A model generated the notes under the pieces. It was not told the origin of the DNA and made no database searches. It saw nothing but the letters and a program-made list of their open reading frames with translations. The position numbers were made by a program, and so were the translations under genes. 64,000 nt of DNA. Origin: Podarcis gaigeae (taxonomy: Eukaryota). Every line of letters begins with the position of its first letter. Position 1 is the stretch's first letter. Below are positions 18,049-26,360 of the stretch, piece by piece. The DNA lies in assembly GCA_964106915.2 (NCBI GenBank), contig OZ066920.1. One strand, given 5' to 3'.

Positions 18049-18389
18049 CTGATATATCTTCTGTCTCCGATTCATCATCATCATCTTCTTCTTCCTCCTC
18101 CTCCACTTCCTCCTCTTCTTTTTCATGCCCTTCTTCCTTATCTCTTTTCTCCCTCCTTTCCATTATGCGTTGTTCTGGTTCTTGGAACATGTTTTCCTGC
18201 TCTTGGTACATTTTTTCTGGCCCTTGTAAAATGTTTTCTTGGTCTTGTAAAACGTTTTCCTGCTCATTTTTTTCCTGCTCTTGTAACACATTTTCCTGTT
18301 CTCGTAAAATGTTCTCCTGTTCCTTTCCAAAACTGGCATTTAAATTCATCATTGTGATATCAGGCAGGCTTCCATCTTGATGAACCAGC
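18049..18389 (-). CDS. PIEZO2: PIEZO2 exon 20 (341 nt, contains heptad-repeat expansion)
   Basis: aatag|G CTG..TCA G|gtagtc; LVHQDGSLPDITMMNLNAS..EQEN repeats..acidic tract; phase 2-1. Confidence 0.92.
18161..18322 (-). repeat. Coding 21-nt minisatellite (heptad EQEN[IVM]LQ-like, 8 units)
   Basis: EQENILR EQENVLQ EQEKN EQENVLQ DQENILQ GPEKMYQ EQENMFQ EPEQRIM; approximate DNA unit GARCAGGAAAAYRTKTTACAA. Confidence 0.9.
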
Positions 18390-18744: not shown

Positions 18745-19934
18745 CTGCTCAAAGTAATTGAAACAGAAAGAAAAAAAGGAAATGAGAACAGAGGAGTTAC
18801 AGAAGAAGGTCAGAGATAAAGATATCATGCCATATAACTCACTAGCATTCTCTTAATCCATCTGTGTCAGCCTTCAGATGCCAGGAGCATGCCATCCTGG
18901 CATTAAAAGAGTGCTTCTAACAAGATGGAAAGTGCTTACTACATTTTCAAAGAAACTTTTCATTCACCATTCTTACATTAGGCAAGCAAATTCTTTCAGA
19001 TAAGTTACACTAGTCCGACTCTGAATATATTTACATATTTGTAAAAAACAAAAGCTGATGTAAAAAACAAAAGATTCAAATGGCAAGATTTTCCATTTGC
19101 AAGTAAGCAAGTCTGTTTATTCAGTTCAAAATTCAGGTAGCATACAATCTTGAACCAGCTCTTCACAACATCTCAGCTACACTTTCAAGAATTCTATGGT
19201 TAAAAATCAATATAAAGAGTTGAAAACAGGAAACACCAATTGAAGGTGTTTCTACTGATGTGGAAAATGGAAATGTTACTAGTAAGCTATAAAGTATTTT
19301 GGAGGTGCATTCTGGTAAACACTACTTATGATCAAATTTACCTTCTTCCCTAAGAAAATGGGATTGGCTGTCTAGTTTCACCATTACATAAAGGTAAGGA
19401 AAACATTTAAATTTTTTGTTAGTAATTATAGTAAACTTGCCATACAGATGACAGCCAATCGGTCCCTGATCCAAACCTCAGTTTGAAGCTATTTCAGTCA
19501 GGAAGGTGATGTTGTACTATTAGTTTCTCTTTCTAAAAGAAAGCTTGGGTGTCCTTTCAGCTCTAATACAGAGTCCTTTAGAGTTAAAGATATCCCTTGA
19601 TATTTTACTCTGTTCCCTACATACCTTATGAAAGACTCAGGACAACTCAATGCCACAAATAAGTAAATGGGCTTAGGCAGCCAGGATCAGACAAATCCTT
19701 GGATATGATATATATTGGGGCGTCCAACTTCCAAGAGTCTGTGATCTACTCACAGTACTAAAAAACTGGCAGTGATCTACCCATTGTCAGAGTTGTTGAG
19801 ATTTATTTAGGAAGCCAAAGTTGTCTTTCATTTTTGCAAAATTAGCATGTTGTTGAATATTTTCTTACTTATTTCAAAAATACCTAATCATTTAACCATT
19901 ATATTTAAATGCTAATAGTAAAACATGAACAGTA

Positions 19935-20288
19935 CAGTGGTACCTTGCAAGACGAATGCCTCGTAAGACGAAAAACTCGCAAGACAAAAGAGTTTTTATT
20001 TTTTTGAGTTGCTTCGCAAGACGAATTTCCCTATGGGCTTGCTTCGCAAGACGAAAACGTCTTGCAAGTTTGTTTCCTTTTTTGAGCCTTTTTTGAGGTT
20101 TTTGAAGACTTTGGTGATTTTTGAAGCTTTTCCAAAACTTCTTTTGCAGCCATTTGGTAAGTTAAACTTTTAAAACTTTTTTGGGGGTTTTTGGATTTTG
20201 GGTTGGAATCCGTGCTTCGCAAGACGAAAAATTCGCAAGATGAAAAAACTCGCAGAACGAATTAATTTCGTCTTGCGAGGTACCACTG
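19935..20288. mobile_element. Tc1/mariner MITE (family B)
   Basis: TIR CAGTGGTACCT, TA TSD, many CGCAAGACGA subterminal repeats. Confidence 0.88.
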
Positions 20289-23200
20289 TATACTTTAAAT
20301 TTGCAACATAGCTATAAATGAACGCAAGATGCCTTTCAAATAATGAACTAGTGTAAGACTTGAATCAAGACATTAAATTTATCTCTATTTATGAATTTTA
20401 TTCAGCTTGTCCACGTACATAAGATCATACAATGTATTCAGAATTTTAGTAATCATTCTCATAAAAGTCATTTTCTATGACAATTATTTTCAAGAGAGAT
20501 AAATAATACCTGCTAAATATTATTCAGTGTGCCCCAGAGACTTTGGGAAGGATTCCCAAGGGTTCCTAGCTCAAAGGATGGGCCAGAAAGGTACTAAAAA
20601 CGCCATTGCTCAGGTTTTCCATAGGCAAAACTGTGCATGAGTCTTCAGTTCTTAATGTTGAGCTGCTGCCTGCCTTTCTCCAACTGGACCTCCCTTCTCT
20701 GTAAGAATGGGTAGGGCCAGTAATGAAAAGACTGTCTGAAGGCAGAGAATGGGGTGCCATAGAAAGCCTATTATGAGCTGGGCCAGAATGTCATGAGTAG
20801 CTCATAATGGCTTGGTGACTTCTTTTCCCAATTCTAATTCCAAAAATTGGCATTGTCAATATTCTAAAGGTCACACTTTGATGTTACACAAAAGCAGTTG
20901 ACTGATTTCTGTGCCACTTACTATCACATGTGCTCAGGATCCTAGAGAACAGCATGCTAACCACACTGCCTACTTAAGTAAATATTATGTAAATATCTTA
21001 ATTTCAGAGGAACACCAACACACACACACACACACACACCAGAAAGCAGTGTAATTACTGAGCAAAAGCTGTTGCACTGATCTAGCAAGATGTAAAATAC
21101 AAGTGCTAATGACCTGGATTTATCAAGAGCACTGTTGTCCAGACCACCAACAGTGGCTTGGACACTGACCCAGCAGGATAAGGGGTCTGCTGACTCAGTA
21201 GGACCACTCACAGAATCGCCAGATCTGGGCTGCGACACTGAGCTAGAGCCCAGCAACCAAGAAGCAATAGAATCAAAGACACACCAAATCTCCTGAGCTA
21301 GGAACTTCAGAGATAGCAGCACACTGATGAAGCAACATCCGTGTCTCTAAAGACCTCATATGTCCCATCTACCACCACCACCGGCAGTTTGCTTTGTATG
21401 AAATGATTGAGAAACAACAGAGTGCTAGGCTCCAAGGCAAAATCTTCGTCACATTAACAGTATCCAACAAGGAGGTAGACCTAAGTAAATTTAGTGAATA
21501 CAAATTTAGTGAATACAAATAATTTAAGGGACTGTTTTACGTAGCTTGCTTACTGTCTGAAGTGTGGAATGCACTATTTTCTGTTGGAGCTAGTTAGGAG
21601 AGACTAGACTATCCTCCACCTTCTCAAAACCTTTCTTACCCTGTCTCATTTTCAGAGTCCTTTAAAATGTCTTTATAATTTTGTTGGCTGTGGGATTGAG
21701 CTTACCTTATCCTTGTGAGGTATCCGAGAGTGGTGTGTGTAATTTCCTTTCCATTAAACACTTCTCCAGTGCTCTGGAGCATCCCTGGCTGCCTGCATTT
21801 CCTGATCTGAAAAAGCACCATGGGAGGAGTTACCTTACAACACCTTCCCCTGAGCTTTAATTAAAGTGCGGGAAGCCGGGAAGGTTGGCTACCAAGTGCC
21901 CCTGGATTGGTGCGCTCACTGCCTTTGTTTTTAAGAGATGTCGTTTTGACCATTAAAACAAAAAACTACACCAAGCAAACACACATGCCATTTAAAAATT
22001 AACAATAAACAACTGTTAGGAGCACTGTCAGCAGCCCGCTCAGCTTCCCACACTTACAGGAAAGCCCAGTTGAGGACATCATGGTGTTTTTGAAGGAAAC
22101 ACAGGCACTTGGAAAAGCTGCAACCTGCCAGGGAGATGAATTGTAGAAAGAAAGGACACTCACATAATCCAGTGGCCATCTCAAAATTAAGGTAAGCAAA
22201 AACCCAGACCCAACCCATGAGCATTTCACCGAACCTCTCTCCTCTCTTGCTACATAATTTTTAAATGCAATTTATTTTCTCATTAATTGATGGTGGACAG
22301 TTTTTTTTTTAAAAAAAAAAAAAACCCTAGAGAAATTTTCAGCACTGAATCAGGTGAAGTCCACCTGTCTCAATTCAAAATGAACCAGGTCTTTCCAAAC
22401 CTTTCTCAAGAATTCTCAATAAAATTCTGGATTTCCCCCTCCAAATCCCCCCAAAGTTTGGAAAACCCAACCTGGGAGATCTCCTTCACTGTCACTCATT
22501 TACTAGTTTCCCTCCTACCCCTTTTCCTAAAGTCAAAAGTTGTGGGGTGGGCTGGTAGAGAAGAGACAGCAGCTGCGTTTCCAAAAACCAAACCAAAACA
22601 GGGAATCTTCCCTCCTACAATAAATGATTCTGGAAATCCTTGACCCCTCCACTGTCGACAGGAAGTCTGTCAACTGCAGTTTCTTAATCACAGAAACTAA
22701 GGCAGGAGGCTTATAAAGTATTACATTTCCCAGAGTCAGCAAAGCAGACTCAAGCAATGCTTAGAAGTACTCACCATGCAGAGTGAGGAACTGCTTAGAA
22801 GATGCTGCCTTTGGTTCAGTTTGTGTGTGTTTATATATGTGTGTGTGAACATACACTTCCAAGATCTGACATCTGCAGGAACGACTAACAGACAGCCTAA
22901 ACCCTTATCATCCTTTTTTCTTCAGCAACTTAGTGAGCATGTGAAAGTGTAGGAATGGAGGAGAGAAACTGGCATATGAAAATGCTGGTACCAAGTACAA
23001 ATTCAAAGGAAGTCAGGTTCAGTTCATTAGAGATTTTACACTTCATATTTCATGATAACTGTCCCCTTCCTGCCTTCCACAATTCTTCAGTATTGCTAGG
23101 GTAAGCTTATCATAATGGTGTTGCTTTGATGCACTCTTGTAGCCAAGATATAACATCATTTTCTCTTGAATGCAACACATAAAATATTTGATGGAGTAAA

Positions 23201-24531
23201 GATGGTTTAAGAAAGCAGATGTTTAAAGAACTCCTCTTTGAATGGTTTTCTATCCTTGCATTTGCAATTTTATATATATGAGTTGTAACAGAGTTCTGAA
23301 GTATTAATAACTCATAATTATATGTCTTTCCCTTAGAAGTACAAGCTTCTCTTTCTTTTATCTCTGACCAATTATCATGATGAGAGATATTAAGAATACA
23401 GGCTGATATCCAAAGAGTAAAAAATGCCCCCAAAACGCTTCTCCTCTAAAGGGGAGGGGGTTTGCTAATTTTCCTTTTCAACAACAGTCTTTTCAGACAC
23501 GTTGAATTCCACTTTGGAGGGTCCCTAACATTCAGGGCAGTGGGAGGGGGCCATGGGTTAGAGGTATTGCAATGGGAAGGAGGCATATAACTAAGCAAGG
23601 TAATTGGCAGGCAAAGAAGTTCCACCAAATCTGTACAATTACTATGCAAATTATAGAAGGGGGAAAACCTCCATCTGTTCTATATATGAGCCAAAACCAT
23701 TAGCAATAAAAATGCTGTCCTAAAGTAGCTGTCAACATATGTTCAACTATTTTCAAGTTTTTAAATTCATGTCTGATTATGACATGGATATTAAAAGTAT
23801 TTTATTCAAATATGAGCATCAGCCCACCATATTTTGCTCTATTGTTATACTGATATACATGCCAACATCAGAATCAATGTCACTTTTATTTAGAAGAGAC
23901 TTGCGTCCATAACCAACAGGTTTTTTCCAGGTTCCTGAGATGCCATTGTATACAAAGGAACACCACTTCCTAACTCTCATACCCACACACGCCTGCTGCA
24001 ACAAATTTACAAGGAACTTTGAAGATAAAGTCACTCGCTTTTGCTCCAATCTTTACACCTCAGTTGTTTGATGAGGTGTCTAGCACACCATCATGTCATA
24101 TTGTTTGGGATTCATTATTATCATTGGGGTTTCAATGTGTGGACTAGACACATGCAGGAGTGCAACCAACTATCTGTTTTCTAGAACCTTGCCTACTGTT
24201 GCTTCCAAATGCTAGCTAGAGGGGGATGATTGGAGATTACAGCTAGTGCATAATGCACCTGCTGGATCACTGGCCAATAGACATGGGCAGTCATACAACA
24301 CCTCAAGGTCCATTTCCCGAATTACCCCAAACAGGAACCATTCAGCATTAAACAAATTCCTAGAATCCCATACCAAACGTGATACTTCTCATTGCTTCTT
24401 TACATTGTATTAGGACAACTTAAAGCACTATGCTATTACTTTAAATAGTTATGGATTCCCCCAAAGAATTCTAAGAGCTGTAGTTTGTAAAGGGTGCTGA
24501 GAGTTATTAGGCTGCCTCTATTCTTTTCCTA

Positions 24532-24887
24532 GGGACGCGGGTGGCACTGAGGGTTAAACCACAGAGCCTAGGACTTGCCGATCAGTAGGTCAGCAGTTTG
24601 AATCCCTGCGACGGGGTGAGCTCCCATTGCTCGGTTCCTGCTCCTGCCAACCAAGCAGTTTGAAAGCACGTCAAAGTGCAAGTAGATAAATAGGTACCGC
24701 TCCGGCGGAAAGGTAAATGGCGTTTCCGTGGGCTGCTCTGGTTCGCCAGAAGCAGCTTAGTCATGCTGGCCACATGATCCAGAAGCTGTACACCGGCTCC
24801 CTCGGCCAATAAAGCGAGATGAGTGCCGCAACCCCAGAGTCGGTCACAACTGGACCTAATGGTCAGGGGTCCCTTTACTTTATTCTT
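24532..24887 (+). mobile_element. Sauria SINE, full length
   Basis: GGGACGCGGGTGGC tRNA-like head, AGATAAATAGGTACCGC core, GGACCTAATGGTCAGGGGTCCCTTTAC tail; about 14-bp TSD TATTCTTYTCCTAG. Confidence 0.88.
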
Positions 24888-25576
24888 TATTCTTCTCCTA
24901 GAGCTACAATTTCCAGAGCTGTCTGGGAAGAAGGATTGTTAAACTACTCTGGAAATTGTAGTCTTTGATAAAAGAGGAGTGTCTCATTTAATGTCTTGCT
25001 ATCATTTACTGCTGCTGTAGTTTTCAAATCTACTTGTCCACCTCTCTCGTGTGTGGACAACTGGAGGAGAATGGTGGTTGGCAGTAGCACCTGCTGCAAC
25101 AATGCTGGGGGTGGGGGATGCAGGGATAGAAACATGGGGAGCCAGGTTTACATTGGCCAGGAGCCCATCAACAGCACTTCTTCTAAGGGCTCACTGAAGT
25201 CTGGTGCCAACTGAGATGAGCAAAAGTGTGTACAAACACTACTGGGTGCTGATGAACTAGTTTACTCAGACAATTGTGTTTTACATGTCTAGATGCAAAT
25301 AAAATTGATTGAATTTTTTTCCAACTTGGATAACATTTAAAGTGAATCATTGTATTCACAGCTTTTAAAAATGGGAGAACTCTCAGAGTTAGAACTCCAC
25401 TGTGTTGACCAATAAGCTCTTTGTTCATTGGAAAAATTGAGCACTAGGATTGTTTTATTTGAGGTTAATATATAGCCTGATATTCCTCTCCGCCCCCGCC
25501 CTCGCTTCCGAGTGAAAATGTAAGCAAGCAAGTAAAAGAAACATTTTGTTAGGAAAGGAAAGATTGGAATACCCAC

Positions 25577-25618: not shown

Positions 25619-26186
25619 CTTTGGTGAGAAAGATGAAAGCACAAGAATGCATGGGACGGCAGCAGGAAAATTAGTTAAGAGAAAGAAAGAGAAAAGAATA
25701 GTGTTAAACAGGAAAGAAGGAACATTGCTGTCTTACCAGAGGAAGAATATATTGCCAACAGTCCCAATGAAATAGTAAGATTATTGAAGGATTATTACAA
25801 AACATTCAGTAACAAACACTTGTCAGCATATAGGTTCCCATTGTACCACTAGACTTCCAGCTACTTGGATTAAAAGAGCCAACTTCCTTAACAATCCTGT
25901 TTGATGTCTCCCCACTCAATACCAAACGATAAAACATTATCTGAGTAGCATAACCAAACAGAAAAGATCTATAAAAAAGTATGTGAGTTGTGCTAACAGA
26001 AGTCTATAGAACACAAGATTTCTAAGCAGTCTATTACCCAATTTCTTGGTGACTGCAAGCCAGCTTAGCTTTCAAAATAAAGTTCATGCTTAGACATCAG
26101 AGCTATATAACCATATGGTGGTTGAGGAAGTAGAAGCTAAGAACCTGGTGACACTGAAAGAAATAACATTTCTCTGCTTGCTTTAC

Positions 26187-26360
26187 CTGTAAATGGCACT
26201 ATCCTGTTTGCTGATTATGGCTTTCAAATCCGTGAGTTCAAGGAAACGGTCATGGAAATAATGTAGGTGTAAGATGCACACTAACAAAAAGGAGGTTGGA
26301 ATAAAGATGCGGGTAAACAACTCTGCTACAGAAAACTGCTTTAAGCCAAGATCTTCTAGT
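26187..26360 (-). CDS. PIEZO2: PIEZO2 exon 17 (174 nt)
   Basis: ttcag|A CTA..TAC AG|gtaaag; LEDLGLKQFSVAELFTRIFIPTSFLLVCILHLHYFHDRF..AIY; phase 2-2. Confidence 0.95.

Follow-up and report, generated by a model that had tools for sequence, protein, structure and literature searches.

An exon-like segment with its own ATG in PIEZO2 intron 18 of Podarcis gaigeae lies in an old hAT-like transposon and is probably an occasionally spliced cryptic exon

Does the PIEZO2 gene of the lizard Podarcis gaigeae contain, deep within one of its introns, a second promoter and a first exon of its own? The question arises from the analysis of a stretch of 64,000 nucleotides (contig OZ066920.1, hereafter the window), for which an initial annotation made from the sequence alone had proposed an internal transcription start in intron 18, followed by an exon which starts with ATG and is joined to the downstream exons, so that a PIEZO2 protein lacking THU1-4 with their 16 transmembrane helices would be formed. 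Inspection of the sequence confirmed that all motifs on which this proposal was built are present on the minus strand of PIEZO2 intron 18.

21910-21906, minus strand: CCAAT, seen in the sequence.
21868-21883, plus strand: two CGGGAAG motifs, seen in the sequence.
21855-21866, minus strand: 12-bp AT palindrome holding an in-frame stop, seen in the sequence.
21855-21914, minus strand: putative promoter motifs taken together (CCAAT, two CGGGAAG, palindrome), all within a transposon.
21833, minus strand: GT of a donor-like AAG/gtaact, seen in the sequence.
21821-21819, minus strand: ATG in the context cccATGg, opening a 38-codon frame; a feature of the transposon consensus, intronic in the spliced form observed.
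21708-21700, minus strand: strong donor AAG/GTAAGC, a feature of the consensus; the exon would end at 21706.

PIEZO2 is encoded on the minus strand of the window, and the order of its exons was confirmed by tblastn, with five PIEZO2 homologues mapped exon by exon.

26360-26187, minus strand: PIEZO2 exon 17, from homologue mapping; the junction observed starts from its 3' end.
25618-25577, minus strand: alternative exon 18 of 42 nt, matched by macaque homologue P0027; skipped in the junction observed.
18744-18712, minus strand: alternative exon 19 of 33 nt, matched by homologues P0027 and P0060.
18389-18049, minus strand: exon 20, from homologue mapping and in silico joining.

The short exons 18 and 19 correspond to the two peptides found in the macaque homologue, are in frame and are conserved from Podarcis gaigeae to mammals according to the homologue mapping. 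The splice junctions after exons 17, 18 and 19 are all of phase 2. The frame arithmetic of the initial annotation into exons 19 and 20 was right, as the donor at 21706 is also of phase 2, and joining 21821-21706 in silico to exon 19 or to exon 20 keeps the reading frame. We take the loop which receives exons 18 and 19 to be located after THU4; a crude hydropathy count yielded 11-12 transmembrane-like segments before this loop in three homologues, a measure too blunt for a statement on 16 helices. The available texts on human PIEZO2 describe exons 18 and 19 as alternative and as partly encoding IDR4 (10.64898/2026.02.16.706133; PMC8924262), the deletion of which leads to higher stretch sensitivity (PMC8924262). 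A separate observation was made in exon 20, where a tandem 21-nt coding repeat (18168-18326) encodes QEN-type heptads in the disordered loop, with 4.1 copies and a further 2.4 at 76-79% match. This repeat is longer than in snake homologues and not present in the mammalian ones; judged from these homologues it is a lineage-specific expansion of IDR4.

How much of the motif assembly could be expected by chance was examined for each part. CCAAT has an expectation of 0.27 per 150 nt on either strand, and 40 perfect 12-bp palindromes are present in the window outside the run of N (224 minus 184 consisting of N only). The putative promoter segment has four CpG dinucleotides in 231 nt, as many as are found in 11.5% of windows of the same size, and its CpG observed/expected ratio of 0.28 is not that of a CpG island, a composition which leaves non-CpG promoters possible. 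The upstream motifs (CCAAT, palindrome and CpGs) are no more than chance. The combination of ATG, open frame and donor is rarer: six donors of the type MAG/GTRAG occur in 58,920 intronic nucleotides, and the one at 21706 is the only one preceded by an ATG with 38 open codons; with the looser pattern G/GTRAG this holds for 3 of 19 donors. This rarity has an explanation in the origin of the segment, because the combination is inherited from a transposon consensus.

21600-22352, ends approximate, strand not assigned: non-autonomous hAT-like DNA transposon, present as a decayed copy, from the repeat search and terminal inverted repeats (TIRs).

When the segment 21640-22000 was used for a search of the lizard's own genome, 385 first-look candidates were obtained, and all 39 other places that were scored had 70-81% identity with E<=6.7e-21. 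The neighbouring stretch yielded 171 candidates. The matches are distributed over many contigs. Fifty other copies jointly cover 21625-22350 and none of them extends outside. Other copies carry TIRs at both ends; in the copy of the window a remnant is left near 22350, the other TIR is lost and a target site duplication (TSD) is not recognisable. The TIR pattern had 23 exact matches in the genome versus none for a reversed control. Among the 23 copies selected in this way a candidate far TIR was found in nine, and in these an 8-bp TSD matched at 7/8 positions in two (L063, L066), at 5/8 in two and at 4/8 or less in five; in three further copies with two TIRs no 8-bp TSD was found. Given the age of the family, this TSD pattern fits hAT best. 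The consensus of about 655 bp has long imperfect inverted arms and no transposase reading frame, the longest stop-free stretch being 94 codons. The family therefore likely belongs to the hAT superfamily as a non-autonomous member. In its length of about 500-690 bp, TIRs of 11-16 bp, a putative 8-bp TSD and the absence of an open reading frame of transposase size it is like the lizard non-autonomous hAT elements of Novick et al. (PMC3014272). In two respects it differs from what the available part of that report gives for Anolis: its TIRs start with TAG instead of the CA of the Anolis TIRs given there, and it is much older, with median identities of the other copies to the consensus of 62-77% versus a divergence of a few percent (PMC3014272). 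An origin from an LTR element was rejected on account of the TIR-type ends and the foldback arms. An Rfam scan of 21450-22500 returned snoR14 (E 0.048) and U7 (E 0.16), both far below the gathering score and attributable to chance. About 110 nt of the window copy (21950-22060) are not part of the family consensus and show weak inverted similarity to 21850-21887.

From the ATG to the donor the window matches the consensus of the 50 copies at 101 of 116 positions, and this consensus itself encodes the open frame of 38 codons. Among the 50 copies the ATG is kept in 28, the first AG (21808-21807) in 36, the second AG in 39 and the GT of the donor in 31; the whole donor 9-mer is kept in 8 of 49. 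ATG, open frame, phase 2 and GT are found together in six of the 50 other copies, and acceptor AG plus donor GT are both kept in 23 of the 49 spanning copies (L002-L052). The same ATG, frame and donor were seen in two sets picked without the window as query, one of 28 copies found with another copy and one of 14 out of the 23 found by TIR. CCAAT is specific to few copies (3/41), and the CpGs at 21914, 21878 and 21870 are sites at which the ancestral element had a CpG and most copies no longer do. The ATG, its frame, the two AGs and the two GT sites are shown to derive from the transposon consensus. An ATG with an open frame and a strong donor inside a repeat is no evidence of a gene feature.

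Whether the segment is ever spliced was looked at in sequencing runs of relatives, of which 14 of 20 were guessed to be RNA and none is recorded as such. The stretch 21060-23460, outside of which exons 18-20 lie, was examined in two of the 14 probable-RNA runs (X1, X7) and in two of the six others (X17, X20). One of the two probable-RNA runs, X1 from relative A, contained a contig of 115 nt with depth 3.8 which aligns to 21722-21813 with three other letters, too close for a paralogue. The 23 loose letters of this contig are exactly those of window positions 26194-26216 and the next seven fit the end of exon 17; because the loose letters match there, the junction is one from exon 17 (26187) to 21806. 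It skips exon 18 and uses the acceptor ttttcag/21806. Exactly 30 nt precede the junction, which would fit a contig that branched off the main isoform when the reads were assembled with 31-mers, and the contig ends blind at 21722. The support for this junction is this one contig, which may stem from a single fragment present a few times; the run is guessed to be RNA and comes from a relative, not from Podarcis gaigeae itself. Over 21814-21930, where the putative 5' UTR and the ATG lie, neither X1 nor X7 has an orthologous contig, and X7 has none over the exon; as contigs show presence and not absence, this does not weigh against the promoter. Two further X1 records with matches of 35-44 nt (records 3 and 4, one at depth 153) were rejected as paralogous since their loose ends resemble other transposon copies, and the same applies to most short pieces from X17 and X20 and to the other joints found. 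In relatives E and F (X17, X20) the whole stretch was recovered in one contig each, differing at 37 and 85 letters over some 2.4 kb. Both carry the element unbroken at that position, so the insertion is shared; the donor is unchanged among the differences listed, which are in part masked within the repeat core by stacked paralogues.

21706-21806, minus strand: cryptic exon, which with the 21706 donor would be 101 nt long and frameshifting; 5' end from one contig, 3' end predicted.
21807-21832, minus strand: 3' splice site with AG 21808-21807, pyrimidine tract and TAAC as putative branch point.
21802-21803, minus strand: second AG, atcag/21801, which would give a 96-nt in-frame cassette; kept in 39 of 50 copies, the junction seen enters at 21806.
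21709-21707, minus strand: TAA, a stop reached prematurely when the segment is entered at 21806 from exon 17 or 18, computed in this genome.

The part of the initial proposal which stands is that the segment is exon-like, as a spliced contig enters it from exon 17; the internal promoter and ATG-bearing first exon find no support here, their features being transposon-derived and the transcript observed coming from upstream. The acceptor used lies 15 nt downstream of the ATG, so that the ATG is located in the polypyrimidine tract and spliced out instead of serving as an exonic start. Likewise the motif gtaact, which had been described as donor-like, is present but sits where a branch point would be: the pyrimidine tract has C or T at 16 of 20 positions, and the branch-point-like TAAC in this motif places its A at 21830, at -24.

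One reading accounts best for these data. The old hAT-like transposon in intron 18 would occasionally have its built-in splice signals used, with a branch point at 21830 and exit through the donor at 21706. Entry via 21806 yields 32 new codons and then TAA, whichever donor follows; this TAA lies beyond the end of the relative's contig, and an exon of 101 nt causes a frameshift regardless. According to the exon-junction rule, a stop with many junctions downstream makes a message a target of nonsense-mediated decay (NMD), and because many junctions follow the TAA the message is predicted to be such a target. The exon would thus be rare, out of frame and included at a low level, it would send the message to NMD, and it would presumably have no selected function. 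To this combination of transposon origin and occasional cryptic splicing into a rare NMD-targeted 101-nt exon we assign a probability of roughly 0.72. If the message were translated, the product would stop after some 830 residues of the host protein followed by 32 new ones, a blade fragment without pore and the opposite of a short-bladed channel. The candidate shares with exons 18 and 19 the intron region, the loop and phase 2, these exons being included alternatively in the sources available to us (10.64898/2026.02.16.706133; PMC8924262). They are, however, in frame and conserved, whereas the candidate is repeat-derived, frameshifting as observed and without match in 99 homologues: the 38-codon peptide found no real counterpart among these (best E 1.5), and a weak search of proteins of 92-2000 residues left 0 of 4 candidates at E<=10.

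The best of the other explanations, in itself unlikely, is a regulated poison exon, that is a 101-nt exon kept by selection which would tune the dose of PIEZO2 by splicing-coupled NMD in some tissues. It would account for the real-looking junction from exon 17 to 21806, for the copy being found in one piece at the corresponding position of relatives E and F with no donor change among the differences listed, and for the window copy being among the least diverged, second-ranked when another copy was used as query. The identity of the exon part is 0.83 compared to a median of 0.77 (1 of 28 copies as high) and, in the second set, 0.82 compared to 0.62 (0 of 14 as high), the latter median being lowered by incomplete copies. 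Sites of CpG decay are kept at 5/31 in the window copy versus 36/1027 in other copies (naive binomial p=0.004), three of the five lying in the putative promoter. In the ATG frame, one of three frames tested, the window copy has a pN/pS of 0.32, the median being 0.66, and 3 of 40 copies reach a value this low; the 0.32 is based on 15 changes from the consensus, seven synonymous and eight non-synonymous. Low divergence, CpG retention and pN/pS speak weakly for the initial proposal and could mean some constraint, but a slow or lightly methylated region would explain them as well as selection does. Against a poison exon speaks that the exon part is not significantly better kept than the flanks of the same copy (101/116 versus 157/195, Fisher p=0.16), that the contig depth is low and that splice signals found family-wide need no copy-specific gain. 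Regulated poison exons are typically deeply conserved; this candidate lies in a repeat. The likeness to the SCN1A 20N-type poison exons, as far as these are described in the accessible text, is that inclusion of an intronic exon adds a premature stop (PMC11981616, PMC11632617).

Less probable again is the alternative, already considered in the initial annotation, that the segment is an in-frame cassette of 96 nt (21801-21706), by which 32 residues would be added to the IDR4 loop and stretch sensitivity could be tuned. The open frame and the pN/pS of 0.32 in that frame would agree with it, as would the partial origin of IDR4 from exons 18-19 and the effect of its deletion in the available text (PMC8924262). 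The only junction seen, however, uses the first AG directly after the pyrimidine tract, so the cassette takes the wrong AG, and entry at 21806 shifts the frame into the stop. The open frame is moreover ancestral to the transposon, pN/pS is as low in 3 of 40 other copies, the sole exon difference listed for relative E (21733) alters a residue in this frame and the peptide is without match in the homologues.

That the contig is an artefact of reverse transcription or of the library, and the segment a silent intronic repeat, is quite improbable. The contig is a single dead-end one of low depth, and template switching is possible as six of the seven letters that end exon 17, CAG among them, recur at the acceptor; but the joint lies exactly at the true exon 17 donor and at an AG which follows a pyrimidine tract with a branch-like motif.

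A promoter and ATG first exon supplied by the transposon, leading to PIEZO2 without THU1-4, is hardly to be expected and finds no support here. In its favour are the cccATGg context, the 38 open codons, the strong donor whose phase 2 fits the frame of exons 19 and 20, the three retained CpGs within the proposed promoter and the precedent of C. elegans PEZO-1K, described in the available text as a mechanically active form without THU1-4 (PMC12951647). PEZO-1K has the architecture which the initial annotation had predicted, but the worm channel differs in architecture from PIEZO2 (PMC12951647). All elements of this promoter are transposon-derived, however; there is no CpG island, CCAAT is copy-specific and common by chance, relative F differs at the CpG 21913-21914, and the transcript observed enters from upstream and removes the ATG. 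In addition, engineered PIEZO2 tolerates loss of THU1-3 while further medial-blade deletions abolish activity, a THU1-4 deletion not being separately named in the part of the report available (10.1101/2024.04.06.588398). Equally remote is a double role in which the transposon was co-opted as promoter and start exon of a natural THU1-4-less PIEZO2 and at the same time acts as a poison exon in full-length transcripts.

Some further features of the window were noted. At 19934-20288 there is a young-looking MITE which has TA on both sides and near-perfect TIRs starting with CAG, and which we take to be Tc1/mariner-like; it provides the only 500-nt bin with a CpG observed/expected ratio above 1. 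A GC-richer insertion of about 350 nt in intron 18 (24530-24880) presumably resembles a Sauria-type SINE. A GC-box-like run (25490-25502) stands alone in AT-rich sequence, some 80 nt beyond exon 18 in the downstream direction of the minus strand. Pseudo-exon-like AG...GT pairs are seen on the minus strand at 22775-22872 in intron 18 and at 25737-25940 in intron 17; both are among 13 donors in the introns of the window which have a pyrimidine-rich acceptor upstream, and for 22775-22872 no contig was found in the two probable-RNA runs, from contigs which show presence and not absence.

With cryptic splicing of a transposon as the preferred reading, the case resembles what was described by Sela et al. 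2007 for exonization: an intronic transposon gives acceptor and donor, and the resulting exon breaks the frame, carries a stop and is of apparently low level (PMC2394776). Transposon exons are, according to the accessible text of that study, usually of low inclusion and stop-bearing, and of 77 human exons from DNA transposons in coding regions 53 had a stop, 20 a frameshift and four were intact, with none as alternative CDS start (PMC2394776). That study concerns human and mouse (PMC2394776); here it is a hAT-like family of squamates, with an inclusion level that is presumably low. In the open text of PMC and bioRxiv, no report of a PIEZO2 internal promoter, poison exon or transposon exon was found among the matches listed, which did include a paper on PIEZO2 splicing; isoform tables in supplements could bear on novelty.

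Exonization of a transposon is an ordinary, known phenomenon, and what is seen here is most likely low-level cryptic splicing, apparently a small and unreported splice addition to lizard PIEZO2. It is typical of intronic transposons that carry cryptic splice sites and matters little as it stands. Were the promoter model true, it would be the first natural blade-truncated vertebrate PIEZO, a counterpart of worm PEZO-1K, and would allow a direct test of the distal blade's function. For the transposon family itself the wider implication lies in the ready-made acceptor-donor pair which is carried by about half of the spanning copies compared, so that insertions in this orientation may give rise to cryptic exons in other genes as well.
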